Assembly (NCBI RefSeq): GCF_053078305.1
Contig: NZ_CP166879.1
Length of the DNA stretch: 64,000 nt
Direction: 5' to 3' (one strand)
A model generated the notes under the pieces. It was not told the origin of the DNA. It made no database searches and saw only the letters and a list, made by a program, of their open reading frames with translations. Both the position numbers and the translations under genes were made by a program. Position 1 is the first letter of the stretch. Each line of letters begins with the position of its first letter. Of the stretch, positions 6,964-60,668 are shown one piece after another.

Positions 6964-7066
6964 TGCCGGATGCGGCGCGAACGCCTTATCCGGCCTACAA
7001 AAGTTTGTAAATTCAATAAATTGCAGAATTCACGTAGGCCTGATAAGCGAAGCGCATCAGGCATTT
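6964..7066. repeat. REP/BIME element pair
   Basis: gccggatgcggcg...cttatccggcctac and inverted gtaggcctgataagcg...gcatcaggc motifs. Confidence 0.85.
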
Positions 7067-9245: not shown

Positions 9246-9312
9246 AAAAAAAACCCCCACATCATGTGGGGGAAGACAGGGATGGTGTCTATGGCAAGGA
9301 AAACAGGGTTTA
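9246..9312 (-). ncRNA. cpxQ: cpxP 3'UTR with intrinsic terminator; candidate CpxQ sRNA
   Basis: Immediately 3' of cpxP stop; hairpin cccccacatcatgtggggg followed by U8 on the minus strand; CpxQ is known to derive from the cpxP 3'UTR. Confidence 0.45.
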
Positions 9313-9813
9313 CTACTGGGAACGTGAGTTGCTACTACTCAATAGCTTCAACGATGAACTTTTTTGCCATTGCGTCACGTCGCGCAACTGCTCCATTCGT
9401 TGTTGATGTTTCTCGTTTAAAACCGCTTGCTGCTCCGGCGTTAACAGGCGATACATTTGGTTGCGGACTTTTGCCATCTCAACCTGACGAGCAATTTGCT
9501 CATTCGCCATTTTTTCTGCCTGTGCGCGCACAGCGTTTTCATCAAAATTTTCTGCGGTGACAAGGCGATGCATTGTCTCCAGTTCGCTAACATTAACAGG
9601 AGGCTGTTCGTGCCGGGCCTGTTGCATAAGATCTCGCATCTGCTGACGCTGATGTTCGGTTAAACTTATGCCGTCGAACATATGGCTCTGCGTACTGCGC
9701 TGCGTAAGTTCTTCACCCGGATGCCAGTTATCGCCTGAACCGACTTCAGCAGCGTGGCTTAATGAACTGACTGCCAGCGTTGAGGCCATGACGGCAGCGG
9801 TAACTATGCGCAT
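9313..9813 (-). CDS. cpxP: Periplasmic Cpx pathway inhibitor/adaptor CpxP
   Basis: 166-aa ORF from [11 protein letters not shown] start; divergent from cpxRA. Confidence 0.93.
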
Positions 9814-9892
9814 CATTTGCTCCCAAAATCTTTCTGTCGCGATTCAACGATAGAGAGTTTACGATTCAGGCTGCAAACATGCGTCAGGGGGT

Positions 9893-9907
9893 GTAAAACA
9901 ACGTAAA
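9893..9907. promoter_or_regulatory. CpxR-P binding site (GTAAA-N5-GTAAA) in divergent cpxP/cpxRA promoter
   Basis: Exact gtaaa-acaac-gtaaa tandem motif in the cpxP-cpxR intergenic region. Confidence 0.7.
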
Positions 9908-12042: not shown

Positions 12043-12127
12043 GTAGGCAGGATAAGGCGTTTACGCCGCATCCGGCATTTGAGCAGGATGCCTGATGCGA
12101 CGCTGATAGCGTCTTATCAGGCCTACA
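12043..12127. repeat. REP/BIME element pair
   Basis: gtaggcaggataaggcgtttacgccgcatccggca ... gcctgatgcgacgc...cttatcaggcctac. Confidence 0.85.
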
Positions 12128-20915: not shown

Positions 20916-21335
20916 GCCGGATGCGGCACAAGTGCCTTATCCGGCCTACAGGTCGGCAACAGTTGTAGGCCTGATAAGACGCGACATCGCATCAGGCATT
21001 GATTGCCGGATGCGGCACAAGTGCCTTATCCGGCCTACAGGTCGGCAACAGTTGTAGGCCTGATAAGACGCGACAGCGTCGCATCAGGCATTGATTGCCG
21101 GATGCGGCACAAGTGCCTTATCCGGCCTACAGGTCGGCAACAGTTGTAGGCCTGATAAGACGCGACAGCGTCGCATCAGGCATTGATTGCCGGATGCGGC
21201 ACAAGTGCCTTATCAGGCCTACAGGTCGGCAATAGTTGTAGGCCTGATAAGACGCGACAGCGTCGCATCAGGCATTGATTGCCGGATGCGGCACGAGTGC
21301 CTTATCCGGCCTACAGGTCGTGCATCCGACAACAC
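20916..21335. repeat. Tandem REP/BIME array, about 5 copies of a ~92-bp unit
   Basis: gccggatgcggcacaagtgccttatccggcctacaggtcggcaacagttgtaggcctgataagacgcgacagcgtcgcatcaggcattgatt recurs starting at 20916, 21005, 21097, 21189 and 21281. Confidence 0.9.
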
Positions 21336-31419: not shown

Positions 31420-34400
31420 ATGCAGGTCAGCAGAAGGCAGTTCTTTAAGATCTGCGCTGGCGGTATGGCAGGCACCACGGCAGCGGCACTGGGTTTTGCA
31501 CCCAGCGTAGCACTCGCGGAAACCCGGCAGTATAAACTGCTGCGCACCCGCGAAACCCGTAATACCTGCACCTATTGTTCCGTAGGCTGTGGGCTGTTGA
31601 TGTACAGCCTCGGTGACGGAGCAAAAAACGCCAAAGCATCTATCTTCCATATCGAAGGCGATCCGGATCACCCGGTCAACCGCGGTGCACTTTGTCCGAA
31701 AGGCGCTGGCCTGGTGGATTTCATCCACTCCGAAAGCCGTCTGAAGTTTCCGGAATACCGTGCGCCAGGTTCTGATAAATGGCAGCAAATCAGTTGGGAA
31801 GAGGCGTTTGATCGCATCGCCAAACTGATGAAAGAAGACCGCGATGCTAACTACATTGCGCAAAACGCCGAAGGCGTGACTGTTAACCGCTGGCTCTCCA
31901 CCGGGATGCTGTGCGCTTCCGCGTCGAGTAACGAAACCGGCTATTTAACGCAAAAATTCTCCCGCGCGCTGGGTATGCTCGCGGTCGACAACCAGGCGCG
32001 TGTCTGACACGGACCAACGGTAGCAAGTCTTGCTCCAACATTTGGTCGCGGTGCGATGACCAACCACTGGGTCGACATCAAGAACGCCAACCTCGTCGTG
32101 GTGATGGGCGGTAACGCCGCTGAAGCTCACCCGGTCGGGTTCCGCTGGGCGATGGAAGCCAAAATTCACAATGGCGCGAAGCTGATTGTGATCGATCCTC
32201 GCTTTACGCGTACGGCTGCGGTGGCTGACTACTATGCCCCTATTCGTTCCGGTACTGACATTGCTTTCCTGTCAGGCGTATTGCTGTACCTGCTGAACAA
32301 TGAAAAATTCAACCGCGAATACACCGAAGCCTATACCAACGCCAGCCTGATCGTGCGTGAGGATTACGGCTTTGAAGATGGCCTGTTCACCGGCTACGAC
32401 GCGGAAAAACGCAAGTACGATAAATCCTCCTGGACTTACGAACTGGACGAAAACGGCTTCGCCAAACGCGATACCACGCTGCAACATCCGCGCTGCGTGT
32501 GGAACTTGCTGAAACAGCACGTTTCCCGCTACACGCCAGATGTGGTTGAAAACATCTGTGGTACGCCAAAAGACGCGTTCCTGAAAGTCTGCGAATACAT
32601 CGCAGAAACCAGTGCTCACGATAAAACTGCCTCGTTCCTGTATGCCCTCGGCTGGACGCAACACTCCGTTGGTGCGCAAAACATTCGTACGATGGCGATG
32701 ATCCAGCTGCTGCTCGGTAACATGGGGATGGCTGGCGGCGGCGTTAACGCCCTGCGCGGTCACTCCAATATTCAGGGGCTGACGGACCTGGGGCTGCTGT
32801 CGCAGAGCCTGCCAGGTTACATGACGCTGCCAAGCGAGAAGCAGACCGATCTGCAAACCTACCTTACCGCCAACACGCCAAAACCGCTGCTGGAAGGCCA
32901 GGTAAACTACTGGGGCAACTACCCGAAATTCTTCGTCTCCATGATGAAGGCCTTCTTTGGTGATAAAGCGACGGCGGAAAATAGCTGGGGCTTTGACTGG
33001 TTGCCGAAGTGGGATAAAGGCTACGACGTCCTGCAATACTTCGAGATGATGAAAGAGGGCAAGGTCAATGGCTATATCTGCCAGGGCTTTAACCCTGTTG
33101 CCTCATTCCCGAACAAAAACAAAGTGATCGGTTGTCTGTCGAAACTGAAGTTCCTCGTCACCATCGACCCGCTGAACACTGAAACCTCTAACTTCTGGCA
33201 GAACCACGGTGAGCTGAACGAAGTTGACTCGTCGAAGATCCAGACCGAAGTGTTCCGTCTGCCATCGACCTGCTTCGCGGAAGAGAACGGTTCTATCGTT
33301 AACTCAGGTCGCTGGTTACAGTGGCACTGGAAAGGTGCGGACGCCCCGGGGATTGCGCTGACTGACGGCGAGATCCTCTCCGGTATCTTCCTGCGCTTGC
33401 GCAAGATGTATGCCGAACAGGGTGGCGCGAACCCGGACCAGGTGCTGAACATGACCTGGAACTACGCCATTCCGCATGAGCCGAAGTCGGAAGAAGTAGC
33501 GATGGAGAGCAACGGTAAGGCGCTGGCCGATATTACCGATCCGGCAACCGGTGCGGTTATCGTCAAGAAAGGCCAACAACTTAGCTCGTTCGCCCAATTG
33601 CGCGATGACGGTACAACCTCCTGTGGCTGCTGGATTTTCGCCGGTAGCTGGACGCCGGAAGGCAACCAGATGGCACGCCGTGATAACGCCGATCCGTCTG
33701 GCCTCGGTAACACGCTGGGCTGGGCATGGGCATGGCCGCTTAACCGCCGCATTCTGTATAACCGCGCCTCCGCAGATCCGCAGGGTAACCCGTGGGATCC
33801 GAAGCGTCAGTTGCTGAAATGGGACGGCACTAAGTGGACCGGCTGGGATATTCCGGACTACAGCGCAGCGCCTCCGGGTAGCGGCGTCGGGCCGTTTATC
33901 ATGCAGCAGGAAGGCATGGGGCGTCTGTTTGCCCTCGATAAGATGGCGGAAGGTCCGTTCCCGGAACACTACGAGCCGTTTGAAACGCCGCTGGGAACTA
34001 ACCCGCTGCATCCAAACGTTATCTCGAACCCGGCTGCACGTATCTTTAAAGACGATGCCGAAGCATTGGGTAAAGCCGATAAGTTCCCGTATGTCGGAAC
34101 CACCTATCGTCTGACCGAGCACTTCCACTACTGGACCAAACACGCGCTGTTGAACGCGATTTTGCAGCCAGAGCAGTTTGTGGAAATCGGGGAGTCGCTG
34201 GCGAATAAACTTGGCATTGCCCAGGGCGATACCGTGAAAGTCTCCTCCAACCGTGGCTATATCAAAGCCAAAGCGGTGGTGACCAAACGTATTCGCACGC
34301 TGAAAGCGAACGGCAAAGATATCGATACCATCGGTATTCCGATTCACTGGGGCTATGAAGGCGTAGCTAAAAAAGGCTTTATTGCCAATACGTTAACGCC

Positions 34401-35385: not shown

Positions 35386-36017
35386 AACGACGTGACACCA
35401 TCGTGCGCTACACCGCGCCGGAACGTATCAACCACTGGATCACCGCCTTCTGCTTCATCCTGGCGGCGGTGAGCGGGCTGGGCTTTTTGTTCCCGTCCTT
35501 CAACTGGTTGATGCAAATCATGGGCACACCGCAGCTGGCGCGAATTCTGCACCCGTTTGTCGGCGTGGTTATGTTTGCCTCGTTCATCATCATGTTTTTC
35601 CGTTACTGGCATCACAACCTAATCAATCGGGATGATATCTTTTGGGCGAAGAATATTCGTAAGATCGTCGTCAACGAGGAAGTAGGTGACACCGGGCGTT
35701 ATAACTTCGGTCAGAAATGCGTTTTCTGGGCGGCGATTATTTTCCTGGTTCTGCTGCTGGTGAGCGGCGTGATTATCTGGCGTCCTTATTTTGCGCCTGC
35801 TTTCTCAATCCCGGTGATCCGATTCGCGTTAATGCTGCATTCATTTGCCGCAGTGGCGTTAATTGTGGTTATCATGGTGCATATCTACGCCGCCCTTTGG
35901 GTGAAAGGCACGATTACCGCCATGGTGGAAGGATGGGTTACCAGCGCCTGGGCGAAGAAACATCACCCGCGCTGGTACCGTGAGGTCCGCAAGACAACGG
36001 AAAAGAAAGCTGAATGA
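35382..36017 (+). CDS. fdoI: Formate dehydrogenase-O cytochrome b556 subunit
   Basis: 211-aa membrane ORF overlapping fdoH stop. Confidence 0.95.
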
Positions 36018-36943
36018 GTATTCGCATAATCCCGCAAGATGAGCTGGGTTCGAGCGAGAAACGTACGGCGGATATGATTCCGCCGTTATTGTTCCCTCGG
36101 CTCAAGAATTTATACAACCGCCGCGCCGAGCGTCTGCGCGAGTTGGCAGAAAATAATCCGCTGGGTGATTACCTGCGCTTTGCTGCGCTTATCGCCCACG
36201 CCCAGGAAGTGGTGCTGTACGACCATCCGCTGGAGATGGATCTGACTGCACGCATTAAAGAAGCCAGCGCACAAGGCAAGCCCCCGCTGGATATTCACGT
36301 TCTGCCGCGTGATAAGCACTGGCAAAAGCTGCTGATGGCGCTAATTGCTGAGCTGAAACCTGAAATGAGCGGCCCGGCGCTGGCAGTGATTGAGAATCTG
36401 GAGAAGGCATCGACTCAGGAGCTGGAAGATATGGCCAGCGCACTGTTTGCCTCTGATTTCTCATCCGTCAGTAGCGATAAAGCGCCGTTTATCTGGGCTG
36501 CACTGTCGCTCTACTGGGCGCAGATGGCCAATCTGATCCCCGGCAAAGCCCGCGCTGAATACGGCGAACAACGTCAATATTGCCCGGTATGTGGCTCTAT
36601 GCCGGTGTCCAGCATGGTGCAAATTGGCACCACTCAGGGGCTACGTTACCTGCACTGCAACCTGTGTGAAACTGAATGGCACGTTGTGCGCGTAAAATGC
36701 AGCAACTGCGAGCAGAGCGGCAAACTGCATTACTGGTCGCTGGATGACGAACAGGCCGCGATTAAAGCCGAAAGCTGCGATGACTGCGGCACTTACCTGA
36801 AAATTCTCTATCAGGAAAAAGAACCGAAAGTTGAAGCCGTAGCAGATGACCTCGCCTCTCTGGTACTGGACGCACGAATGGAGCAAGAAGGCTATGCCCG
36901 CAGTTCCATCAACCCGTTCCTGTTTCCGGGTGAAGGGGAGTAA
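36014..36943 (+). CDS. fdhE: Formate dehydrogenase formation protein
   Basis: 309-aa ORF with paired CxxC motifs. Confidence 0.93.
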
Positions 36944-37123
36944 TCTCTGACGTTTTCCGGGTGGCGCTGGTCGCCCGGATTACAGCTCATAGGGTGTGAC
37001 GACACCATCTCTCGTATTCCGCGTTACCACCTCAAGCTATGCCGCCAGTGCCTGTTTTGCCTCAATTTACCCACCCCCACATCAATAAGGTTATGGGTAT
37101 GAGACTGATGATAAGCGTAAGAT

Positions 37124-37222
37124 TGCCTGATGCGCCGCGCTTATTAGGCCTACCAATAAACTGCAATACATTGAATTTATACGACTTTGTAGGCCGGGTA
37201 AGGCGTTCACGCCGCATCCGGC
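37124..37222. repeat. REP/BIME element pair
   Basis: gcctgatgcgccgcgcttattaggcctac ... gtaggccgggtaaggcgttcacgccgcatccggca. Confidence 0.85.
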
Positions 37223-37272
37223 ATGAACAACGCGCACGTTGTCAGCAATCTGATTGATATCATTTTTTCCCA

Positions 37273-47705: not shown

Positions 47706-48716
47706 TCATTCCGGCGCAAATTGCAGCATGACCTTTATGGAGTCATTTTGCTGCGCGCGTTCGAATGCCGCCGCTGCATCCTCAATGGCAAATAAATCGG
47801 TAACCAGTTCACTGGTATCAAACCGCCCATCCGCCAGCCATTCGATAACAGCATCGAAATCTTCAGGGATGTACATGCCAGAGTTGAGCAAGTCACGCTC
47901 GAAACGTTGCATCATCGGTAATGGTATTTCACGCGGCCCACTTGGTACGCCCATGCACACGACGGTGCCTCCGGCATATACACGGGTACATGCATCGTTA
48001 AGCGTGGCCTGCGCTGCAACGACATCAATCGCCCCCGTAAATCGCACATCTGCGGCCAGCTCACCTGGTGCCCAAACTTCTGCTGCGCCCAGCTTTAACG
48101 CCAGCGCGCGTTTGGCAGCGTCAGGTTCAATCACGGTAATCTTACCTGCCCCCATAATGCGCAGTGCCTGCACGATGGATAAGCCTATCGTTCCGGCACC
48201 AATCACCAGTACGCTTTCCAGAGAAGCTTTCGGCATTCGGTTAACGCAGTGACGGGCACAAGCCGCCGGTTCGGCAAAGGCCAACACTTTTAGCGGTAAA
48301 GAGGCTGGTGCGACATGGCAATTACGCGCAGGAACAATGTGTTGTGAGCGAGCAAAGCCCGGTGCGCGAAAACCAGCAACCTGCGGTGGTTCACAAAGAT
48401 TAAAACGTCCTGCTTTGCAGGCTCGGCATTCCATGCAAGCCATGATGGGATCGACCACAACATGATCGCCCGGCTGTACATTTTTAACGTCGCTGCCAAC
48501 TTCCGTAACGCGCGCTGCAATTTAATGACCGGGGACGACAGGTGGTTTGGCAAACGGATGACCGCCTTTCAGAACATGCAGATCCGAACCGCATATCCCA
48601 TGGAACACAGGCGCAATCCGCACTTCGTGCGGTTTAAGTTCCTGGTGTGGTACTTCAACATATTGAGTGGTGACTTTCCCAATATCTGAAAATAAAACCT
48701 GGGTAATTTTATCCAT
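47706..48716 (-). pseudogene. Zn-dependent alcohol/polyol dehydrogenase (MDR family) interrupted by in-frame TAA
   Basis: N-terminal 64 codons (..PVVPGH) then TAA at 48522..48524, then the same frame continues IAARVTEVG...CMECRACKAGRFNLC (structural-zinc Cys cluster); stop sits where the GHE motif Glu is expected. Confidence 0.7.
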
Positions 48717-48748
48717 TGTTATTCTCCAGAATCGATATCCATAGGGGA

Positions 48749-49636
48749 TTAGCGTTGCGCGATACCTTCATCGACAATTTCTGCCAACCGTTGTAAACGA
48801 GGAACAGAGACATCGCGCAGCATAATTTGTGGATCTTGTGCACCAACAACCGACGCCCAAACCGCTCGTCCAGCCAGGAAGCCTGACGCACCACCTTTCA
48901 TGGCAATACTTACTGCACGGCCAAAAATATCGGCATCAACGCCAGAAGAAAGAATTACCCACGGCATCTTCATCTGATCGTTAAGTTGCTGACAGGCGGC
49001 AAGTAAGGTTTTTTCATCGCCTTTGCCCCCTAATGGCATCTCGGCTTTGTAAAGATCAGCCTCTGTTCCACCAAGCTCTGCGGCGGCGGCAACAATGGCG
49101 CTTTCACGATCAAAGTCCCAACCGCGACGAGGTGGACGCACCACAGGTTCAATAATGCTAACCAGCCCGGCACTACGGCAGCGACGAACAAATTTATCAA
49201 CCATTGCCAGACGTTCCTCTGCGGGTTCATCTTCACGCCAGAGTACAAGTAATTTCATTGCCTTAGCCCCCATTTCACGGGCTTTATGCGGGTCGACGGA
49301 CATATCTATTTCAACGCTATCAACCGGGATGCCATTACCTGGGATAAAAAGATCGGCAGCGACAATCAGGCCGCAAGAATTAGCAACAGCGCCCTGCTCG
49401 ACTATTTGCTCAAGACAAAATTGTTTATCCGCCAGAACGGCAGAAGCATAAGGAGAAAGGATTCGGGTCGCGGCAACTTTAAAATCGGTGAGTACACTGT
49501 CGGCGATGGGTTTTGGCTGCCCTGCTGCCGCAAACATCAAGCGCATGGCCTCACGCTGATCGACAGCTAACATGGCAAATCCACCACCTGGGCGGGAGAT
49601 ATCTTTCAGCGTAAATGGGGTGAAGTGGGATGACAT
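48749..49636 (-). CDS. yihT: Class I sugar-phosphate aldolase (LacD/YihT-like)
   Basis: 295-aa ORF with AMLAVDQR motif; orthology to K-12 yihT inferred, not confirmed. Confidence 0.7.
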
Positions 49637-49660
49637 AGAAACTCCTGTTAATAGATAAAA

Positions 49661-50539
49661 TTAAAGACCAGCCTGCTGGCGAACCTGATTTAGCAGGGCA
49701 CTCCAGTCCTGCCGCCCTTTGCCGTCTTGACTTGCTGCAGCGTAATAACTTTCTGCTGCAATCCCCATATTGAGCGGTGCCCCCGTCTCCCGAGCGACGT
49801 CAACTGCAATACGCAGATCTTTCAACGCCAGATCCACCATGAAGGCGGGTGAAAGATCGCCTTTCAGCACTTTGCCAGGCCAGGTGGTCGTAAAATGTCC
49901 TTTCCCTGCTGCCGTACCACTCATCACCTTAATTGCGACATCAAGATTTAATCCCAGTGACTCACATAACACAGCGGCCTCGGAGGACAGCGCATTAAGC
50001 GCAATGCTCATATAGTTGTTAATTAGCTTCACGCGGATCCCCATTCCAGGGCCGCCAGCCTCGACCAGCTCATTACCCATGCACATGAGAATCGGGCGTG
50101 CACGTGCAATCTGCTCATCAGTGCCACCCGCTAAAATCAGCAATGTGCCATCAATCGCATTCACGGACGTTCTGCCCACGGGGGCGTCCATCATACTGAT
50201 GCCTTTTTCTTGTAACTCCCGTATTAATGCATCGGTCTGTAAGGGATGAATAGTCGACATATCAATCAATAACGCGTCAGATGAAACAGCCTCACAGACG
50301 CCTTTTTCCCCCAACAGAACCTGTCGAACAATGTCACCATTGGGAAGCATAGTGATGATAAATTCAGCGCCTGCTGCTGCTTCCGCTGGGGTTTGTGCCG
50401 CAGTGGCCCCCTGCGTAACTAGCGCATCGACGGCCAGTGCATTGACATCAAATACCTGCAATGAATGCCCTTTATGCAATAGATTGTTAGCCATTGGGCT
50501 ACCCATCTGCCCCAGCCCGAGAAATGCAATGGTTGCCAT
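49661..50539 (-). CDS. yihU: 3-hydroxyisobutyrate dehydrogenase-family reductase (YihU-like)
   Basis: 292 aa from [13 protein letters not shown] (Rossmann GxGxxG); track ORF has a 67-codon upstream extension. Confidence 0.7.
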
Positions 50540-50711
50540 GAATACTCTCCTGTCTGACATTGACAAAATAATGACAATTGAAAATTCGTTTTCGTCTGTT
50601 TTTGAGCATATTTGTAATTTATGTTCAAAAACACGACATACATCACTAATTTGATCATTTGTGTCATTTAAATTGACCAAAGACGACAAAATTAAACAGG
50701 ACAAGACAAAT

Positions 50712-51608
50712 ATGACCAGAATTGCATGCGTGGGTATCACAGTTCAGGACAGGATTTATTCTTTGCCCACTCTGCCGGAGGGCGGCGGGAAATATCAGGC
50801 AAATCATTATCTTGAGATTGGTGGCGGCCCGGCAGCAACAGCCGCTGTTGCAATCGCAAGGCTTGGCGTGGAAGTTGATTTCATCGGTCGCGTCGGCGAT
50901 GACAGTTGTGGAAATACCTTACTTGCAGAACTTGAGGGTTGGGGCGTCAATACAGCATTTTGCCGCCGATATCCTAACGCCCGTTCGTCGCAATCAGCGA
51001 TCCTCGTTGATCAGCATGGCGAACGGATTATCGTTAATTATCCAAGTCCTGATCTCGGTACTGATGCCGAATGGTTAGAAGCGATCGATTTCTCTCGTTA
51101 TGATCTGATTCTGGCCGATGTTCGCTGGCATAGCGGTACTGAAAAAGCATTCTCGCTAGCGCGCCTTGCGGGTGTGACAACGCTTTTAGACGCCGATATG
51201 ACACCGCAGGATATTTCTCCACTTGTCGCGCTTGCCGATCACGCCGTGTTCTCAACGCCAGGGCTGAAACGCATGACTGGCCTGCAGTCACCTGAAGAAG
51301 GTTTGTTCCAGGCAACGACACAAACAGCAGGTAAAGTGTATGTTACGCTGGGTTCTGAAGGATCGTTGTGGATTGAAGATGGTCATTTGTGTCAACAGGA
51401 GGCATTTTCTGTCAATGTGGTTGATACCACTGGAGCAGGCGATGTTTTTCACGGCGCACTCGCGGTAGCGTTGGCAGAAAAAATGCCAACAAAAGAGGCT
51501 ATTCGTTTTGCCAGTGCGGTTGCCGCGATGAAATGTACCCAGCCTGGCGGTCGGGCCGGCATTCCTAATCGTGAGCAAACCGAATCATTTTTGTCACTTT
51601 ATGCGTAA
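50712..51608 (+). CDS. yihV: pfkB-family sugar kinase (YihV-like sulfofructose kinase family)
   Basis: 298 aa from [24 protein letters not shown] ribokinase-family motif. Confidence 0.8.
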
Positions 51609-51647
51609 AATGGTAAACATCTACCGAGGAGGGGCAAGGGAGTATTC

Positions 51648-52436
51648 ATGAGTATCATCGAAGTGACAGGTAATCCACGCCATGACCAACTCGTTCATCT
51701 AATCGCAGAACGCGGTTATATGAATATTGAAGAACTGGCACAACTGCTGGATGTTTCAACGCAAACCGTGCGCCGGGATATCCGAAAACTCAGTGAGCAG
51801 GGCTTGATCACCCGTCATCATGGAGGGGCCGGGCGCGTCTCCAGCGTCATGAATACCGCTTTTGAGCAACGGGAACTTTCGCTCACCGCCGAGAAACGGG
51901 CGATCGCTGAGGCAGTCGCCGATTACCTTCCCGAACGCTGTACCGTCTTTATCACCATCGGTACAACCGTAGAAGCCGTTGCCAGGGCATTACTCAACCG
52001 GCGTGATTTACGCATTATCACTAACAGCCTACGTGTGGCACAGATTCTTTATAAGAATCAGGATATTGAAGTGATGGTGCCGGGAGGCACTTTACGCGCT
52101 CATAACGGCGGGATTATCGGCCCAGGAGCCGTGGATTTTATTGAAGGCTTCCGCGCAGATTATTTAATCACCAGTATAGGTGCCATTGAACATGACGGCA
52201 CCCTACTGGAATTTGATGTAAATGAAGCGTTAGTCGCGAGAACGATGATTAAACATGCGCGGAATACATTGTTAGTGGCCGATCATACGAAGTTTGCCGC
52301 GTCTGCTGCCGTTTCAATTGGCAATGCACGGAATGTCAGGGCTTTTTTTACTGATGCCCCGCCTCCCAATTCTTTCTGCCAGTTGTTAAGTGAAGAGAAT
52401 GTTGAACTGGTGGTTGCCGAGCAGGAAGTTTCCTGA
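51648..52436 (+). CDS. yihW: DeoR-family transcriptional regulator (YihW/CsqR-like)
   Basis: 261-aa ORF; N-terminal HTH, C-terminal DeoR sugar-binding domain. Confidence 0.8.
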   Translation: MSIIEVTGNPRHDQLVHLIAERGYMNIEELAQLLDVSTQTVRRDIRKLSEQGLITRHHGGAGRVSSVMNTAFEQRELSLTAEKRAIAEAVADYLPERCTVFITIGTTVEAVARALLNRRDLRIITNSLRVAQILYKNQDIEVMVPGGTLRAHNGGIIGPGAVDFIEGFRADYLITSIGAIEHDGTLLEFDVNEALVARTMIKHARNTLLVADHTKFAASAAVSIGNARNVRAFFTDAPPPNSFCQLLSEENVELVVAEQEVS

Positions 52437-52452
52437 AATTGAAACTTCGAAA

Positions 52453-52483
52453 AATCCGCTGGGGATTCAGCGGATTTTATTTT
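52453..52483 (+). terminator. Intrinsic terminator after yihW
   Basis: Hairpin aatccgctg-gggattc-agcggatt followed by tttatttt. Confidence 0.65.
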
Positions 52484-52541
52484 GCCGGATGCGGCCTACG
52501 GTTGATACGGTTTTCGTTGGCCGGATTAAGCACATCCGGCC
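52484..52541. repeat. REP element
   Basis: gccggatgcggcctac ... ggccggattaagcacatccggcc. Confidence 0.75.
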
Positions 52542-52546
52542 ATTAA

Positions 52547-53812
52547 TTAAGCTTCAGCCGCCAGCATCTCTTTCTTACGTTGGCTAATACGCTTAACCAG
52601 CATTACGGAAACCACCGCACCACAGAATGCGAAGCAGGCCATAATGCCAAACACGATTTTGTAGCCAATAATCCCCGGATTTAAATCCAGAATGTAGCCA
52701 TACAGACTGAAGCAGAACATCGCCGGGGCGTAACCAATAAAGCTCCCCAACGCCATCGCCGCGCCTGTTTTATTTTCAGCAATTTTTGCTTCGCCGATAG
52801 GTGCAAAAAATACGGCTCGCTGTGTAAAGACTATCGCGCCAAAGCCCAGCGTACATGCCATCCCTAAATAGACCGGCATACTTTCGTGCGGCAGCATAAT
52901 CAACAGTACGAGCGCAGCGGTACTGATGATAAAGGTGTAGCATAGATATTTACTCGGCGATTTCAGGATCTTATCTGAAATCATGCCACCAATCGGTCCA
53001 CCAATCATTTTCAGACAGTATTGGTTAATGATGCCGTAAGCCCCCACCAGCGCAACGGGCAATAGATAGATGTTTTTCAGGAATGGAATGAAGAATGTCA
53101 GGCCACAGTAAACCGCGTAAACGAAGAAGACGTTGAAAGCGATAAGCCAGATGGTTTTGTCTCTCAGCACCGAGGTCATACTGGTGTTTTGCGATGCTCC
53201 GTCTTCTTTTTTCACCTCAACGGACGGTGCCTCTTCTTTGTCATTCAGGACAAAGAAAATAATAATGCCTACGGCAATCACAATAAGGGAATAGAACCAG
53301 ATGCCTGCTTTAAAACCTAATAAGCCACTGCCAAACCAGGTAAATACTGCCAACGCAGAAAATGCCACCACGGTATCGACAATGCCACGCCCTGTTTCGA
53401 AGAAGCCAAACAACCGACCTTGTTGTTCGCTATTGCCCAATCGACTTACCGACTTGAGCAAGACCGGCCAGTTCATCATGTCGCAAGTAACGCCAAATAG
53501 CGCCCAGACAAAGAGGATGCCCCAATACCCCGGCATTGTCGTCAAATAAACACCCAGTAATCCTGTCGCAATGAGTGAGAATGACATGGTGTATCTGCGC
53601 GGTAGTTTATCGGCAAAATAAATAGACAGAAAAAAGCCCACTGTGGTAACAAATGAGTTTACCGACATAGCATTACCAATTTGACCATTGGTCAAATGGA
53701 AATATTCCTGCATCGGGATATAAAACGCATCTTTCAGCGACGGTAATTTATAAATTGTACCGCCACACAGTGTTAATAGACTAAATAACGCCCATTTCTT
53801 TTTCGTGAGCAT
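52547..53812 (-). CDS. yihN: MFS transporter YihN
   Basis: 421-aa polytopic ORF, length matches YihN. Confidence 0.88.
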   Translation of the reverse strand: MLTKKKWALFSLLTLCGGTIYKLPSLKDAFYIPMQEYFHLTNGQIGNAMSVNSFVTTVGFFLSIYFADKLPRRYTMSFSLIATGLLGVYLTTMPGYWGILFVWALFGVTCDMMNWPVLLKSVSRLGNSEQQGRLFGFFETGRGIVDTVVAFSALAVFTWFGSGLLGFKAGIWFYSLIVIAVGIIIFFVLNDKEEAPSVEVKKEDGASQNTSMTSVLRDKTIWLIAFNVFFVYAVYCGLTFFIPFLKNIYLLPVALVGAYGIINQYCLKMIGGPIGGMISDKILKSPSKYLCYTFIISTAALVLLIMLPHESMPVYLGMACTLGFGAIVFTQRAVFFAPIGEAKIAENKTGAAMALGSFIGYAPAMFCFSLYGYILDLNPGIIGYKIVFGIMACFAFCGAVVSVMLVKRISQRKKEMLAAEA

Positions 53813-53913
53813 AACATCCCCTAAGCGATTTTTAAAATCACTGTTTTAAAGGCAATAAGATACCGACCATTCATATGGAATGGTTTTATTAACTGCGTAT
53901 GAGTTAAAACTTA

Positions 53914-54894
53914 TTAGTTGTTCAGAAGATGGTTTGCCTCTTGTTTGATTTGTTGTAGTACGTTACGCACATGATTTATCTGATTAATTGCATCTTCTTT
54001 TTCTTTACGTAACCGCGCATCCAGTAAATGATTTTCTGGTAGGGGTGTTTCACTCATCTGGCGATAAGGGATCCACGGATTATCATCTTCGTCTTCAAAG
54101 CGGAACGCCGGCGCATAGTAATCAACCTCTTCTTCCAGGCCATATGCCGTCACCTGCGGCTCATCATCACCAAGGCAGATAAGGTGCGTTAATAACGCTT
54201 TGAACGGCATATCACCCTGACCTGAAATACAGGCTTTATGACCCAGGCCACCCTGTTCTTTAACGATCAAGGCATCTTTGATATGGACCTGGGTAATATG
54301 CGGTGCCATCGTTTTTAAGGCGTCTATGGGATGCTCATTTGCATTGATCATGTTCGCAAAATCAAACAGTAAGGAAAGAGACTCCATCTCACTTTCTTTG
54401 ACCAGCGACACCAACTCATGACTTTTTAAATCTTCATGCTGCTCGATCGTAAAAGTCAGGCCGCTGTCCTGATACGTTTCCCGTACATAGGCAATGTCGT
54501 TAGCGATAATCGATAATACGTCGCGCAAATTACCTTCATAACGTGGATAAAAACGTACGGACGATGCCCCAGTTTTCAACGCGATGGCGACGGCTTCGTC
54601 AATAGATGCCTTATCTGAGGCGCTGGTTTCAATATGAATATCAAGGTTCAGACGGCGGGCTTTATCTCCAAAGGCAGAGAGTTCTTTATCGTCCATATTA
54701 CCAAGAGAAAAACGCTCGCCATCCAGAACATGGATTTTGACGCCACGTAGATTATTTTCACTTGCGATATCAAGTAAATCAGCAGGCAACACTCTTTCCA
54801 GCCGCATATTTAAATGAAAGGCATAAGCATGTAAATAAAGAGGAAGAGTGTCGACACGTTGTAGAATCTTTCTTGCGTTATTTATTGTCACCAT
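53914..54894 (-). CDS. yihM: Sugar phosphate isomerase/epimerase (xylose isomerase-like TIM barrel)
   Basis: 326-aa ORF, K-12 synteny. Confidence 0.88.
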   Translation of the reverse strand: MVTINNARKILQRVDTLPLYLHAYAFHLNMRLERVLPADLLDIASENNLRGVKIHVLDGERFSLGNMDDKELSAFGDKARRLNLDIHIETSASDKASIDEAVAIALKTGASSVRFYPRYEGNLRDVLSIIANDIAYVRETYQDSGLTFTIEQHEDLKSHELVSLVKESEMESLSLLFDFANMINANEHPIDALKTMAPHITQVHIKDALIVKEQGGLGHKACISGQGDMPFKALLTHLICLGDDEPQVTAYGLEEEVDYYAPAFRFEDEDDNPWIPYRQMSETPLPENHLLDARLRKEKEDAINQINHVRNVLQQIKQEANHLLNN

Positions 54895-54901
54895 AAAACA
54901 C

Positions 54902-55612
54902 CTACAGATTAATGATGAGGTCTACGGCCTCAAATCGCCAATATTCAATATCTATCTGGACAATATTGCCTTGCTGGTCGGCGCGATGCTTTTCAATTAA
55001 GATCGCTGGCATACCCGCAGAACCGCCAAGATACTTGCTGATATCGCCCGGCATTCTGACGGGTTTGAAAATCAATTTTTTTACTACCGTCTCTTTTTGG
55101 TAGCACTTTTCCCAGACTGCAGAAAATGAGTGGTTTTCAAGTTGTTCAATAAAACCCGGAGCAACTTCAGGATTAATATATGTTTCGTGATAGAAAACTT
55201 TATGTCCTTCCAGCGCCCCCCAGCCGGTGATGCGATAGAGTTCAGTTGATGGTGTCACTGCAATCAGTGGCGCGAGCGTCTCGGGAATATCGCTGGTACG
55301 GTTTTTCTCGGTAAACCCCCAGGAAGGCTCTCGCCCTTGCTCAATTGCGGCCCGCTGAAAGCTCGCCGACAGCTCCGGACTGTAATTAAATCGCGGCTGG
55401 GTCACGAACCACCCCTTACGATCTTTACGGAAGATTTTGGATTCTGCCTCGAGGTTCAACAACGCCTGGCGCAGCGTCATACGTTTAATGCCCAGCAGTT
55501 CTCCCAGCTCTCTTTCTGAAGGGAGTTTTCCACCCGGCGTGGTGATGCCATCTTTCAACCACCGATCCAGTTTCTCTTTTGCATTTTCTACGGTGGATTG
55601 ATTCTCCGCCAT
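54902..55612 (-). CDS. yihL: Transcriptional regulator YihL
   Basis: 236-aa ORF, K-12 synteny. Confidence 0.88.
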   Translation of the reverse strand: MAENQSTVENAKEKLDRWLKDGITTPGGKLPSERELGELLGIKRMTLRQALLNLEAESKIFRKDRKGWFVTQPRFNYSPELSASFQRAAIEQGREPSWGFTEKNRTSDIPETLAPLIAVTPSTELYRITGWGALEGHKVFYHETYINPEVAPGFIEQLENHSFSAVWEKCYQKETVVKKLIFKPVRMPGDISKYLGGSAGMPAILIEKHRADQQGNIVQIDIEYWRFEAVDLIINL

Positions 55613-55828
55613 TGTTTAATCCTTTTGGTTTAAACCAGATGAAGCATCTTACGCTTACGCCAAAAAAGAAAGCAATTAACGGTGTATGACTTTGCAGATA
55701 ATTGTGACAAAGCTCTCTATTGACGTAATCACAGACTTATAAGGGAGATACTCGCATTGGTGTGCGCTCACGACAGGTAAAAAAAAACCTGCCAGCGATG
55801 GCAGGTTTTTTATAACTAAAAAACGAAA

Positions 55829-57652
55829 TTAATCGTCTTTCGGTGCGCGGTTGGCGCGGCGACGATCGTTTTCCGTCAGGTGACGTTTACGAATACGGAT
55901 AGAGGTCGGAGTCACTTCTACCAGTTCGTCATCATCGATGAACTCCAGAGCTTGTTCCAGAGTCATGCGGATAGGCGGAACCAGAACAACGGCTTCGTCA
56001 GTACCGGAAGCACGCATGTTGGTCAGTTTCTTACCGGTCAGGCAGTTTACAGTCAGGTCGTTAGAGCGGCTATGAATACCGATAATCTGACCTTCGTAAA
56101 CTTCTGCACCGTGACCGAGGAACAGCTTACCGCGATCCTGCAGACCGAACAGCGCGAACGCGACCGCTTTACCCTGACCGTTAGAGATCAGTACACCGTT
56201 CTGACGCTGACCCACTTCGCCCGGACGTACGTCGTCGTAGTGGCTGAAGGTGGAGTACAGCAGACCCGTACCGGAAGTCATGGTCATGAACTCAGAACGG
56301 AAGCCAATCAGACCACGGCTTGGAATCACGTAGTCGAGACGTACGCGGCCTTTACCGTCTGGATTCATGTTTTTCAGGTCGCCTTTACGTTCGCCCAGCG
56401 CCTGCATTACAGAACCCTGATGCTGTTCTTCAACGTCCAGAGTCACGTTTTCATACGGCTCTTGTTTACGACCGTCGATTTCACGGAAGATAACTTTCGG
56501 ACGGGATACCGCCAGTTCGAAACCTTCACGACGCATGTTTTCGATCAGAACAGACAGGTGTAGTTCGCCACGACCAGAAACGCGGAACGCATCAGCGTCT
56601 TCGGTTTCTTCTACGCGCAGCGCAACGTTGTGTACCAGTTCTTTGTTCAGACGATCCAGGATCTGACGAGACGTTACGAACTTACCTTCTTTACCGCAGA
56701 ACGGCGAGGTGTTAACGCAGAAGAACATAGAAACGGTCGGCTCATCAACGGAGAGTGCCGGCAGCGCTTCAACGTTTTGCGTGTCGCAAACGGTGTCAGA
56801 AATGTTCAGTTCGCCCAGGCCCGTGATCGCCACGATATCGCCAGCTTCCGCCAGATCGGTTTCGATACGTTCCAGACCGAGGTGGCCCAGCACTTTACCG
56901 ACTTTCGCGTTACGGGTTTTGCCTTCGCTATCGATGATAGTGACCTGCTGGTTCGGCTTCACTTTACCGCGCTTGATGCGGCCAATGCCGATAACGCCAA
57001 CATAGCTGTTGTAATCGAGCTGAGAAATCTGCATCTGGAACGGACCGTCAAGGTCAACGTCCGGCGCAGGAACGTGATCAACAATCGCCTGATACAGCGG
57101 GGTCATGTCTTCCGCCATATCTTCGTGGTCCAGACCCGCGATACCGTTCAGCGCAGAAGCGTAAACGATCGGGAAGTCCAGCTGCTCGTCGGTCGCGTCG
57201 AGGTTAACGAACAGATCGAATACCTGATCCACAACCCAATCAGGACGCGCGCCAGGGCGGTCAACTTTGTTGATAACAACAATCGGCTTCAGGCCGTAAG
57301 CAAACGCTTTTTTGGTTACGAAGCGCGTTTGCGGCATCGGGCCGTCAAATGCGTCAACCACCAGCAGCACTGAGTCTACCATGGACATTACACGTTCAAC
57401 TTCACCACCGAAGTCGGCGTGCCCCGGGGTATCAACGATGTTGATACGGTAATCATTCCATTTGATAGCGGTGTTTTTCGCGAGGATGGTAATCCCACGC
57501 TCTTTCTCCAAATCGTTGGAGTCCATCACGCGCTCTTGGGTTTCGGCACGAGAGTCGAACGTACCGGATTGTTGGAGCAGCTTGTCTACCAGGGTGGTTT
57601 TACCATGGTCTACGTGCGCGATGATGGCGATATTACGCAATTTTTCGATCAC
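55829..57652 (-). CDS. typA: Ribosome-binding translational GTPase BipA/TypA
   Basis: 607-aa ORF with G-domain motifs AHVDHGKTT and DTPGH. Confidence 0.97.
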
Positions 57653-57803
57653 AACTTTGCCTCAGGCATTAGAAATAGCGCGTTATTGTACACGGATTAA
57701 TCGCACTACAAAACAGGATCACAAACATCCTCCGCAAACAAGTATTGCAGAGTCCCTTTGTGATCGCTTTCACGGAGCATAAAAAGGGTTATCCAAAGGT
57801 CAT

Positions 57804-57852
57804 TGCACCAATATGGTGCTTAATGTTTCCATTGAAGCACTATATTGGTGCA
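57804..57852. promoter_or_regulatory. NtrC (GlnG) enhancer binding sites upstream of glnA
   Basis: Two TGCACCA-N3-TGGTGCA-like palindromes (tgcaccaatatggtgct and agcactatattggtgca). Confidence 0.75.
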
Positions 57853-57925
57853 ACATTCACATCATGGTGCAGCCCTTTTGCACGATGTTAAGCATGATAA
57901 CGCCTTTTAGGGGCAATTTAAAAGT

Positions 57926-57941
57926 TGGCACAGTTTTCGCT
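57926..57941 (+). promoter_or_regulatory. Sigma-54 promoter glnAp2
   Basis: tggcac-agttt-tcgct, i.e. the GG-N10-GC -24/-12 element, about 85 nt upstream of the glnA ATG. Confidence 0.8.
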
Positions 57942-58024
57942 TTATCTTTTTTATGGCGACACGGCCAAAATAATTGCAGATTTCGTTACCACGACGACCA
58001 TGACCAATCCAGGAGAGTTAAAGT

Positions 58025-59434
58025 ATGTCCGCTGAACACGTACTGACGATGCTGAACGAGCACGAAGTGAAGTTTGTTGATTTGCGCTTCACCGATACCA
58101 AAGGTAAAGAACAGCACGTCACTATCCCTGCTCATCAGGTGAATGCTGAATTCTTCGAAGAAGGCAAAATGTTTGACGGCTCCTCGATTGGCGGCTGGAA
58201 AGGCATTAACGAATCCGACATGGTGCTGATGCCAGACGCATCCACCGCAGTGATTGACCCGTTCTTCGCCGACTCTACCCTGATTATCCGTTGCGACATC
58301 CTTGAACCTGGCACCCTGCAAGGCTATGACCGTGACCCGCGCTCCATCGCGAAGCGCGCTGAAGATTACCTGCGTTCTACTGGCATTGCCGACACCGTGC
58401 TGTTCGGGCCAGAACCAGAATTCTTCCTGTTCGATGACATCCGTTTCGGATCATCTATCTCCGGTTCTCACGTTGCCATCGACGATATCGAAGGCGCGTG
58501 GAACTCCTCCACCCAATACGAAGGTGGCAACAAAGGTCACCGTCCGGCAGTGAAAGGCGGTTACTTCCCGGTTCCGCCGGTAGACTCTGCTCAGGATATT
58601 CGTTCTGAAATGTGTCTGGTGATGGAACAGATGGGTCTGGTGGTTGAAGCCCATCACCACGAAGTAGCGACTGCTGGTCAGAACGAAGTGGCTACCCGCT
58701 TCAATACCATGACCAAAAAAGCTGACGAAATTCAGATCTACAAATATGTTGTGCACAACGTAGCGCACCGCTTCGGTAAAACTGCGACCTTTATGCCAAA
58801 ACCAATGTTCGGTGATAACGGCTCCGGTATGCACTGCCACATGTCGCTGTCTAAAAACGGCGTTAACCTGTTCGCGGGCGACAAATACGCAGGTCTGTCT
58901 GAGCAGGCGCTGTACTACATTGGCGGCGTAATCAAACACGCTAAAGCGATTAACGCCCTGGCAAACCCGACCACCAACTCTTATAAGCGTCTGGTCCCGG
59001 GCTACGAAGCACCGGTAATGCTGGCTTACTCTGCACGCAACCGTTCTGCGTCTATCCGTATTCCGGTGGTTTCTTCTCCGAAAGCGCGTCGTATCGAAGT
59101 GCGTTTCCCGGACCCGGCGGCTAACCCGTACCTGTGCTTTGCTGCCCTGCTGATGGCCGGTCTTGATGGCATCAAGAACAAGATCCATCCGGGCGAAGCC
59201 ATGGACAAAAACCTGTATGACCTGCCGCCAGAAGAAGCGAAAGAGATCCCACAAGTTGCAGGCTCTCTGGAAGAAGCACTGAACGAGCTGGATCTGGACC
59301 GCGAGTTCCTGAAAGCCGGTGGCGTGTTCACGGATGAAGCGATCGATGCGTACATCGCTCTGCGTCGCGAAGAAGATGACCGCGTGCGTATGACTCCGCA
59401 TCCGGTAGAGTTTGAGCTGTACTACAGCGTCTAA
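58025..59434 (+). CDS. glnA: Glutamine synthetase
   Basis: 469-aa ORF recognised as GlnA. Confidence 0.98.
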
Positions 59435-59495
59435 TAGTTGAAGTTGTACTACCCGGCGCAACAACGCCGGGATTTAGTTGCCGTGGAAACTTTCA

Positions 59496-59520
59496 GCCCA
59501 TCTCTGCATGGGCTTTTTTC
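59496..59520 (+). terminator. glnA intrinsic terminator (3' end of the glnA 3'UTR, candidate GlnZ sRNA)
   Basis: Hairpin gcccat-ctctgc-atgggc followed by T6; preceded by a second hairpin cccggcg-caacaa-cgccggg at about 59453..59472. Confidence 0.7.
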
Positions 59521-59607
59521 TCCGTCAATTCTCTGATGCTTCGCGCTTTTTATCCGTAAAAAGCTATAATGCACTAAAATGGTGCAACCTGTTCAGGAGA
59601 CTGCTTT

Positions 59608-60657
59608 ATGGCAACAGGCACGCAGCCCGATGCTGGGCAGATCCTCAACTCGCTGATTAACAGTATTTTGTTAATCGATGACAACCTGGCGATCCATTAC
59701 GCCAACCCCGCCGCGCAACAACTGCTCGCCCAAAGCTCCCGCAAATTGTTTGGTACGCCGTTACCGGAACTGTTGAGCTACTTCTCATTAAATATCGAGC
59801 TGATGCAAGAAAGTCTGGAGGCGGGGCAAGGTTTTACCGATAACGAAGTGACGCTAGTGATCGACGGTCGCTCGCATATCCTTTCTGTGACGGCCCAGCG
59901 TATGCCGGACGGCATGATCCTGCTGGAGATGGCGCCGATGGATAACCAGCGCCGCTTAAGTCAGGAACAGCTACAGCACGCCCAGCAGGTTGCTGCCCGT
60001 GATTTAGTGCGCGGCCTGGCACATGAGATTAAAAATCCGCTTGGCGGTTTACGTGGCGCGGCGCAGCTACTCAGCAAAGCATTACCTGACCCGTCACTGC
60101 TGGAATATACCAAAGTGATTATCGAACAGGCGGACCGGCTGCGAAATCTGGTCGACCGTCTGTTGGGGCCGCAGCTGCCCGGTACGCGCGTTACCGAAAG
60201 TATTCACAAAGTAGCTGAACGCGTGGTAACGCTGGTGTCGATGGAACTGCCGGACAACGTGCGGTTGATTCGTGATTACGATCCCAGCCTGCCGGAACTG
60301 GCGCACGACCCGGATCAAATTGAACAGGTCTTGCTGAATATTGTGCGCAATGCGCTACAGGCGCTGGGGCCGGAGGGTGGTGAAATCATTCTGCGTACCC
60401 GCACCGCGTTTCAACTGACCTTACACGGCGAGCGCTACCGGCTGGCGGCGCGGATTGATGTGGAAGATAACGGGCCAGGCATTCCGCCTCATTTGCAGGA
60501 TACGCTGTTTTACCCGATGGTCAGCGGCCGCGAAGGTGGCACCGGGCTTGGCTTATCCATCGCTCGTAATTTGATTGATCAGCATTCAGGCAAAATTGAA
60601 TTTACCAGTTGGCCAGGGCATACCGAGTTCTCGGTTTACCTGCCTATCAGGAAATAA
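59608..60657 (+). CDS. glnL: Nitrogen regulation sensor kinase NtrB
   Basis: 349-aa ORF; PAS plus histidine-kinase motifs. Confidence 0.96.
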
Positions 60658-60668
60658 AGGTGACGTTT

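Follow-up and report, generated by a model that had tools for sequence, protein, structure and literature searches.

The RNAs that follow cpxP and glnA in the window, the 64-kb stretch of DNA analyzed here, are with a probability of about 0.95 Hfq-dependent, trans-acting sRNAs, CpxQ and GlnZ, which derive from the 3′ ends of mRNAs and act as non-coding partners of the proteins encoded upstream. CpxQ and O157-type GlnZ (EsrF) are already known and experimentally characterized, and there is no new biology here. They are textbook cases of mRNA 3′ ends that double as regulators: one transcript gives a protein and an sRNA for the same stress, envelope damage in the case of CpxQ and nitrogen limitation in the case of GlnZ. 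Location, identity, structure, conservation, promoter motifs and target complementarity were computed in this analysis; the cut by RNase E, the binding of Hfq, the effect on targets and the precise internal cut in this GlnZ allele come from the literature or from inference.

CpxQ is encoded at the 3′ end of cpxP. The elements of this locus, each with the evidence behind it, are:

9313..9816, minus strand: coding sequence of cpxP, whose mRNA is the parent of CpxQ (ORF list; E. coli annotations under the match; K-12 annotation)
9246..9303, minus strand: CpxQ sRNA, 58 nt, UUUUCCUUGCCAUAGACACCAUCCCUGUCUUCCCCCACAUGAUGUGGGGGUUUUUUUU (alignment to K-12 b4716, fold, conservation in Enterobacterales)
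9273..9303, minus strand: 5′ part of CpxQ, nt 1-31, predicted to be mostly single-stranded, UUUUCCUUGCCAUAGACACCAUCCCUGUCUU (unpaired probabilities, conservation)
9254..9272, minus strand: intrinsic terminator stem-loop of CpxQ and cpxP, 8 bp with loop AUG (terminator scan; 47 self-complementary versions elsewhere)
9246..9253, minus strand: U8 tail, the 3′ Hfq-binding module according to the literature (sequence, terminator scan)
9302..9307, minus strand: putative RNase E site CCCUG↓UUUU (or GU↓UUU), the 5′ end of CpxQ (K-12 5′ end; conservation)
9893..9907, plus strand: CpxR box GTAAAACAACGTAAA between cpxR and cpxP (sole perfect GTAAA-N5-GTAAA in the 64-kb window)

The cpxP frame in the ORF list begins at 9816, and the start annotated in K-12 corresponds to its second ATG, at 9813. 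The gene ends with TAG at 9315..9313 on the minus strand, directly followed by a second stop, TAA, and E. coli genomes label the match 'cpxP: cell-envelope stress modulator CpxP'. The 3′UTR comprises 67 nt (9312..9246, minus strand), the whole of the interval 9246..9312 for which a sequence-only reading had proposed a CpxQ candidate, and the fieF start lies downstream of CpxQ at 9164. CpxQ sits in this 3′UTR on the cpxP strand, a few nucleotides past the stop, and shares its 3′ end with the cpxP terminator. On the minus strand the terminator scan returned CCCCCACATGATGTGGGGG at 9272..9254, a stem of 8 pairs (6 G-C) with a 3-nt loop, and T8 directly after it at 9253..9246. Structured 3′UTRs with intrinsic terminators had been claimed after both cpxP and glnA, and the scan located both where they were claimed. 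The hairpin and U8 proposed for cpxP are indeed present, but cccccacatcatgtggggg, the sequence quoted, gives the hairpin as it reads on the plus strand; the transcript has the reverse complement, and only the minus strand offers a U8.

Positions 9303..9246 align without gaps to the 58-nt ncRNA cpxQ (b4716) of the RefSeq K-12 record, where it lies between cpxP and fieF. The two are identical at 57 of 58 positions, which upholds the earlier identification as CpxQ. The window RNA is like K-12 b4716 and Salmonella CpxQ in its place in the cpxP 3′UTR upstream of fieF, in its strand relation and in its 58-nt extent, and the 5′ seed part, the terminator stem and U8 are all identical between the window and b4716. 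The sole mismatch lies in the loop of the terminator, where K-12 has C and the window A. Of the forms seen in 107 loci of Enterobacterales, the one with A is the most frequent (26 loci), which makes K-12 CpxQ the variant. Salmonella CpxQ was reportedly described by Chao and Vogel in Mol Cell in 2016. The sequence-only reading had also held that the exact 5′ processing sites could not be read from sequence alone, but the 5′ ends are known: K-12 annotation puts the 5′ end of CpxQ at the equivalent of 9303, and RACE in EHEC gives 59435 for EsrF (PMC8092317).

In the predicted fold of the 58-nt RNA, some 30 nucleotides at the 5′ end are largely unpaired, and the terminator hairpin and U8 come after them. 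The minimum free energy (MFE) of this RNA is -17.4 kcal/mol (z = -2.74), which was equaled by 2 of 200 shuffles. The probability of being unpaired is at least 0.9 at nt 1-13 and 19-25, and within the 5′ part nt 14-18 are predicted to form a weak 5-bp hairpin with nt 26-30. Two published seed regions, R1 and R2, lie in this part of the molecule, with boundaries as given in reviews.

Conservation, together with identity to the characterized RNA, carries the argument for CpxQ. The search used the exact 17-nt core TTCCTTGCCATAGACAC in one genome per species and covers the lineages that retain that word. It yielded 120 core matches, 107 of which continue as CpxQ, and a CpxP homolog is detected directly upstream in 102 of the 120; the remaining core matches are mostly truncated contigs or chance matches in unrelated phyla. 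The 107 cpxP-linked CpxQ loci are spread over about 45 genera of Enterobacterales, from Escherichia to Photorhabdus, Proteus, Arsenophonus and Dickeya. The 29-31-nt 5′ block UUUUCCUUGCCAUAGACACCAUCCCUGUCUU is unchanged in 102 of these 107 loci, and 12 of its positions are not fixed by the search word. The 12 nt past the word, CAUCCCUGUCUU, are likewise the same in 102 of 107, and U-rich sequence precedes the word in all. In the alignment, CCCUGUUUU at the putative processing site is kept in most families. At the same loci the identity of the CpxP protein to that of the window ranges from 36 to 98%, with 36-45% in Morganellaceae. The terminator occurs in 47 distinct sequences, each of which is self-complementary, with compensatory substitutions that give stems such as CCCCCAC/GUGGGGG, CCCCGCC/GGCGGGG, GCCCUCC/GGAGGGC and AGCCCC/GGGGCU. 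Sequence kept where the RNA is predicted to be single-stranded, and structure kept where it is predicted to pair, is the signature of a base-pairing sRNA and not of a mere terminator.

Applied to an alignment of CpxQ from 61 species, RNAalifold reported the invariant 5-bp inner hairpin alone; the terminator escaped it, as stems that differ in length lie out of register. Each sequence was folded individually instead. Since the inner hairpin is invariant, covariation neither supports nor refutes it.

The motif match at 9893..9907 upstream of cpxP is the only perfect GTAAA-N5-GTAAA in the 64-kb window. This promoter box is presumably a CpxR site that gives Cpx-dependent transcription of cpxP and of CpxQ. 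In the proposed mechanism, envelope stress would activate CpxR and with it cpxP transcription from the promoter that holds the box, and transcription would end at the hairpin and U8. A cut by Hfq-guided RNase E just past the cpxP stop, probably at CCCUG↓UUUU, would then release a stable 58-nt CpxQ that carries a 5′-monophosphate. Its 5′ stretch of roughly 30 unpaired nucleotides would pair with the mRNAs of the envelope proteins nhaB, skp, agp, fimA, ydjN and cfa, leading to their repression. Published work describes CpxQ as a product of RNase E cleavage that is bound and stabilized by Hfq, and as an RNA that cuts the synthesis of envelope proteins while CpxP deals with misfolded ones (PMC9438474). 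The 5′ boundary, read as G↓UUUU or GU↓UUU, appears compatible with the preference of RNase E for U at +2.

Duplex prediction pairs CpxQ nt 4-18 with nhaB at +299..+314, and nt 17-25 with skp at -20..-12, adjoining the Shine-Dalgarno sequence. In E. coli, a CpxQ site in the nhaB coding sequence is reported near +300 (PMC10250213), and regulation of skp by CpxQ has also been reported (PMC4817254). The predicted pairing at nhaB and skp matches the published sites, which is a consistency check and not independent proof. The 5′UTR and TIR of nhaB were rejected as the CpxQ site, since the TIR site lacks conservation in E. coli, and the site in the coding sequence was then found (PMC10250213).

The second sRNA, GlnZ, makes up the 3′UTR of glnA on the plus strand. 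The elements of this locus are:

58025..59434, plus strand: coding sequence of glnA (469 aa), whose mRNA is the parent of GlnZ (translation ends ELYYSV and stop; annotated 'glnA: glutamate--ammonia ligase' in E. coli)
57926..57941, plus strand: sigma-54 promoter glnAp2, TGGCACAGTTTTCGCT (matches the pattern except at 1 position; 84 nt before the glnA ATG)
59435..59519, plus strand: GlnZ of O157 type, or Class I (= EsrF), 85 nt, the entire glnA 3′UTR (identity to O157:H7; published length and ends)
59452..59471, plus strand: GlnZ 5′ hairpin CCCGGCGCAACAACGCCGGG, 7 G-C pairs, specific to the O157 type (scan, fold)
59474..59493, plus strand: GlnZ seed UUAGUUGCCGUGGAAACUUU, 3′UTR nt 40-59 (same 20-mer in K-12; targets)
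59496..59513 with U6 at 59514..59519, plus strand: intrinsic terminator of GlnZ and glnA, GCCCAUCUCUGCAUGGGC, nt 62-85 (scan; identical in K-12 and O111)

The glnA stop codon is TAA at 59432..59434 (plus strand). The interval 59435..59520 previously assigned to this 3′UTR has the right start but runs one base past the last U, at 59519. Downstream of the stop, the scan found GCCCATCTCTGCATGGGC at 59496..59513 followed by T6 at 59514..59519. It also confirmed the additional upstream hairpin that had been noticed, CCCGGCGCAACAACGCCGGG at 59452..59471, which is specific to the O157 type and absent from K-12. The predicted MFE of the 85-nt RNA is -28.3 kcal/mol (z = -2.27).

Three alleles of the glnA 3′UTR are described in E. 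coli: the K-12 type of 197 nt with a REP insertion, the O157 type of 85 nt and the O111 type of 230 nt (PMC9731577). Across species, GlnZ is sorted into Classes III, I and II, equivalent to the K-12, O157 and O111 types, respectively (bioRxiv 10.1101/2022.04.01.486790). The window carries the O157 type. Its glnA 3′UTR region is 100% identical over 106 nt to O157:H7 and to many other E. coli, and the seed lies directly upstream of the conserved terminator. The RNA of this type was first described as EsrF, and RACE in EHEC EDL933 delimited it as an 85-nt molecule that extends from the T after the glnA stop to the U-tract of the terminator (PMC8092317), and these ends correspond to 59435..59519 of the window. 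EsrF of EHEC O157:H7 and the window RNA have the same 85-nt sequence and the same order of 5′ hairpin, seed and terminator, with no difference detected between them. The host is nevertheless neither an O157 strain nor K-12: over 25 kb of the window (36000..60999), no complete E. coli genome exceeds 99.2% identity. The comparison with published CpxQ and GlnZ sequences that the sequence-only reading had suggested was run, and it gave cpxQ b4716 at 57/58 for the one and the O157 85-nt form for the other. GlnZ had been recognized correctly, as the seed and terminator present in the 3′UTR show, but its allele type, O157 or Class I, had been missed.

With K-12 glnZ (b4836, 194 nt) the window RNA shares the 20-nt seed, the 24-nt terminator, the parental gene and the promoter, but the two are arranged differently. 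In K-12 only 5 nt separate the stop from the seed (nt 6-25), and about 150 nt, including REP, lie between seed and terminator, whereas in the window the seed abuts the terminator and the G-C hairpin occupies the space after the stop. The window 3′UTR is 112 nt shorter than that of K-12, and local alignment finds only the seed and terminator blocks in common. A MAFFT alignment of the two UTRs misaligned the seed, because it is near the start of the UTR in one allele and near the end in the other, and was replaced by local alignment and exact-motif search. The intact 5′ hairpin is absent from K-12, and the O111 type keeps only its 5′ arm. The K-12-type, Class III GlnZ of 194 nt was accordingly rejected for the window, whose 3′UTR has no REP and shares only seed and terminator with it. 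Judged by these shared blocks, the window GlnZ is not the K-12 allele, yet it is the same sRNA family.

Among 5,426 complete E. coli genomes, 3,849 have the O157-type backbone. Judging from genomes sampled at even spacing along the ranking, some 2,900-3,000 of these have the plain 85-nt form and some 900 the 145-nt O111-type insertion. In 1,573 of 5,422 matching genomes the terminator block alone is shared, as in K-12. The GlnZ form of the K-12 reference is thus a minority among complete E. coli genomes.

Upstream of glnA, TGGCACAGTTTTCGCT is a sigma-54 motif match, and flanking TGCACC...GGTGCA repeats are visible. The match at 57926..57941 is presumably glnAp2, which would place transcription of glnA, and so of GlnZ, under NtrC. 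Nitrogen limitation would then activate NtrC and induce glnA from this sigma-54 promoter, and part of the transcription would end at the terminator 59496..59519. RNase E would free the 85-nt 3′UTR together with shorter species, with a likely cut at GGA↓UUUAG (59472/59473) in the AU-rich linker between the 5′ hairpin and the seed. Candidate RN↓WUU sites in the GlnZ UTR lie at 59437/38, 59443/44 and 59472/73. The seed UUAGUUGCCGUGGAAACUUU would pair with sucA, glnP and aceE and so divert 2-oxoglutarate to glutamine synthesis. For the published RNA, release by RNase E and dependence on Hfq are described, and GlnZ lowers SucA, GlnP and AceE while GlnA assimilates ammonia (PMC9731577). In the published picture, the best supported for both sRNAs, cleavage by RNase E with Hfq near the stop would leave a 5′-monophosphate, and the terminator with its U-tail would be the part that Hfq binds.

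Pairing of GlnZ was computed with the target sequences of K-12. With sucA, G49 of the 3′UTR (K-12 G15) is opposite C-39. With aceE, 13 contiguous pairs form and G46 (K-12 G12) is opposite C-99, and the pairing with glnP covers -21..-11. These positions can be set beside published mutants: aceE C-99G with GlnZ G12C is a compensatory pair, and G15C is defective in sucA regulation (PMC9731577). The glnP site just upstream of the Shine-Dalgarno sequence is as published, and sucA -39 agrees with the published geometry (PMC9731577). The window RNA has U at position 41, and a change of U41 to G in the O157 allele weakened aceE regulation (PMC9731577).

Duplex energies are a poor guide for either sRNA. 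Shuffled CpxQ reached equal duplex energy in 45 of 300 cases for nhaB, in 116 of 300 for skp and in 80 of 200 for the whole nhaB coding sequence, and shuffled GlnZ did so in 11-42 of 300 over its known targets. The energies for the targets of CpxQ and GlnZ are not clearly better than those of shuffles, and complementarity alone would not identify the targets. Because the seeds are so short, the shuffle tests do not discriminate, and pairing served only as a check on the existence of the published sites.

Another account of the 85-nt RNA is the EsrF model of Jia et al. (PMC8092317), in which a promoter of its own in the 3′ end of glnA, repressed by NtrC, makes it inducible by high ammonium. Its main role would be activation of flhB through CGCCGGGAUUUAGUUGCC, with effects on motility and virulence. 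The window has exactly this segment at 59465..59482, and the flhB 5′UTR of E. coli has the complementary CTAAATCCCGCC, with which pairing needs the CCGGGA found only in the O157-type allele. However, a promoter scan of 57600..59800 found no sigma-70-like site on the plus strand, and two groups observed induction by low nitrogen, with GlnZ requiring the glnA transcript and RNase E (PMC9731577; bioRxiv 10.1101/2022.04.01.486790). The published EsrF-flhB segment consists of the 3′ arm of the 5′ hairpin and the AUUUAG that follows (PMC8092317); its CGCCGGG is the 3′ arm of the 7-bp all-G-C hairpin and has an unpaired probability of about 0. These observations make the EsrF model an unlikely description of the window RNA. 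As to targets, the EsrF and GlnZ models are not mutually exclusive.

A related and doubtful proposal is that the three E. coli alleles of the glnA 3′UTR (85-nt O157, 230-nt O111 and 197-nt K-12) may be functionally non-equivalent. The G-C hairpin of the 85-nt allele and its CCGGGAUUUAG junction, complete only there, could add targets such as flhB or alter processing. If so, about half of the E. coli lineages, K-12 not among them, would have motility tied to nitrogen status.

The GlnZ seed also occurs in glnA 3′UTRs of other Enterobacterales. A 17-nt seed word occurs in 48 metagenomic contigs and lies in glnA 3′UTRs in 16 of them; the GlnA encoded is 88-100% identical in 14 of these 16. The full glnA UTR could be reconstructed in 13 of the 16 loci, where the distance from stop to seed varies from 5 to 215 nt and is filled with unrelated, usually hairpin-forming sequence. 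In all 10 resolvable loci that are not of the K-12 type, the seed abuts a GCCCAUC...GAUGGGC-U6 terminator. The order of hairpin, AU-rich linker and seed recurs in the glnA UTRs of other species, which suggests that a minimal core GlnZ RNA of about 47 nt may be released.

Both elements could in principle be merely the terminators and 3′UTRs of cpxP and glnA, with the small RNA an inert decay intermediate. The terminators of both are bona fide, the duplex energies with targets are indistinguishable from those of shuffles, and Rfam places neither RNA in a family at gathering score. Loose terminator-like patterns are not rare (2 against 1.4 expected in one of the two regions and 7 against 2.4 in the other), so hairpins alone prove little, and the argument rests on conservation and on identity to characterized RNAs. 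Termination requires no more than a stem and a U-tract, but about 30 unpaired CpxQ nucleotides are invariant over some 45 genera while the stem and the cpxP coding sequence vary freely. The GlnZ seed, for its part, has stayed intact through three rearrangements of the E. coli 3′UTR and next to 5-215 nt of unrelated sequence elsewhere. Published compensatory mutations, made in K-12, EHEC and Salmonella, show direct regulation (PMC9731577; bioRxiv 10.1101/2022.04.01.486790; PMC10250213). An inert origin is therefore very improbable for these RNAs.

At the gathering threshold, Rfam 15 has no match at the cpxP or the glnA locus. Permissive scoring gives Hrs1 of Erwinia (RF02628) for cpxP, at 9246..9318 on the plus strand, with 44.5 bits against a gathering score of 56.4 (E = 3e-7). 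For glnA it gives Ysr49 of Yersinia (RF02766), with 34.1 against 95 bits (E = 7e-5), a match that covers seed and terminator. Hrs1 and Ysr49 are Hfq-associated sRNAs of other genera (PMC4070566 for Hrs1) and are probably the CpxQ and GlnZ orthologs of Erwinia and Yersinia, respectively. Assignment of the CpxQ locus to the Hrs1 family was rejected, given the score below gathering and the antisense strand. In Erwinia psidii the Hrs1 model scores 50.9 bits, again on the strand opposite to cpxP, and Zeng et al. place hrs1 between cpxP and fieF, with all three genes oriented alike (PMC4070566). The Rfam Hrs1 model is most simply explained as a strand-flipped CpxQ. A plus-strand RNA antisense to the cpxP 3′UTR, to which the strand of the best Rfam match (Hrs1, 9246..9318) might point, is scarcely credible, as read that way the hairpin has A8 before it and AAGACAGG after it, which leaves no terminator, and as the original orientation of hrs1 (PMC4070566) and the antisense placement of the model in Erwinia psidii speak against it as well.

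The window is a piece of E. coli chromosome, in the orientation opposite to that of the K-12 reference, and both loci match nearly all of the 5,426 complete E. coli genomes. The practical value of the result lies in annotation. In E. coli genomes annotated by PGAP, neither CpxQ nor GlnZ is listed at the matching positions, for want of a usable Rfam model of either RNA. About 70% of complete E. coli genomes have a GlnZ allele other than that of the K-12 reference, so that transferring K-12 coordinates or lengths to such genomes gives wrong annotations.

In Rfam, the family Hrs1 (RF02628) seems to be a model of CpxQ built on the wrong strand. An Rfam model search matched Hrs1 at the cpxP loci of both E. 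coli and Erwinia psidii (L043, the Erwinia psidii cpxP-locus sequence), in each case on the strand opposite to cpxP.

Hrs1 matches
window 9246..9318, + strand, E. coli
L043 1383..1454, + strand, Erwinia psidii

The Hrs1 consensus begins with A7, which is followed by a terminator hairpin. In the source paper hrs1, cpxP and fieF are all listed in one orientation (PMC4070566). The E. coli match scores 44.5 bits against a gathering threshold of 56.4 bits; together, a wrong-strand model and a score below gathering would explain why CpxQ is left unannotated by Rfam-based pipelines. The CpxQ terminator loop of this strain carries A at window position 9263 (- strand), giving CACAUGAUGUG. Among Enterobacterales this is the commonest form of the loop, shared by Salmonella, E. 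albertii and Enterobacter, and the corresponding base in K-12 MG1655 is C; therefore it is the reference strain that has the derived variant.

A second Rfam family is matched at glnA. Ysr49 (Yersinia sRNA 49, RF02766) gives a sub-threshold match at window 59415..59519 (+ strand; 34 bits, E = 7e-5), which takes in the GlnZ seed and terminator as well as the stop codon of glnA. Ysr49 is probably the differently named GlnZ orthologue of Yersinia. Within E. coli, the O111-type allele is represented by FORC_042 (L128, its glnA-locus sequence).

O111-type allele
L128 161..390, O111-type glnA 3'UTR, E. coli FORC_042

This allele retains nucleotides 1-36 of the O157 type, and its 5' hairpin is broken after the 5' arm, where a 145-nt insertion flanked by AGGTTCAAA repeats follows. 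The 3' end of the seed carries a 1-nt deletion (GGAAA-TTTC). Because of the broken hairpin, the insertion and the seed deletion, the O111-type allele may differ in both structure and seed. The K-12 GlnZ insertion contains a REP element similar in kind to the naRNA4 copies of the window (64-79 bits); GlnZ in the window is REP-free.

Other Rfam matches in the window
20968..21311, - strand, naRNA4 (CssrE), REP/BIME-type element, four tandem copies
12046..12123, + strand, naRNA4 (CssrE), REP/BIME-type element, one isolated copy
32002..32060, + strand, SECIS_3, at gathering threshold, 84 bits; presumably belongs to a formate dehydrogenase gene, as its selenocysteine insertion element
55776..55844, - strand, STnc370, at gathering threshold, 54.9 bits, barely above it
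7000..7041, + strand, ES036/CssrF, at gathering threshold, 44.6 bits, adjoining the pfkA 3' end

The source strain belongs to a sparsely sampled lineage, and the gene content of this region is variable, as follows from the 25 kb at 36000..60999: among 5,426 complete E. coli genomes the best identity to it is 99.2%, only 28 reach at least 99%, and only 713 cover at least 80% of the region in a single place.

Two further observations concern the regions flanking glnA. The sRNA ES222 (Rfam) gives a full-length, high-scoring match (133 bits) in the intergenic region between bipA(typA) and glnA. This match (window 57734..57841, - strand) runs opposite to glnA and overlaps the NtrC-type sites, TGCACC...GGTGCA repeats, that lie upstream of glnAp2. 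On the 3' side of the GlnZ terminator (window 59540..59600, + strand), a TATAAT hexamer at 59556..59561 is overlapped by the NtrC-type palindrome TGCACTAAAATGGTGCA, and this region is the same in the K-12 and O157-type alleles. The arrangement looks like the autoregulated promoter of glnL.
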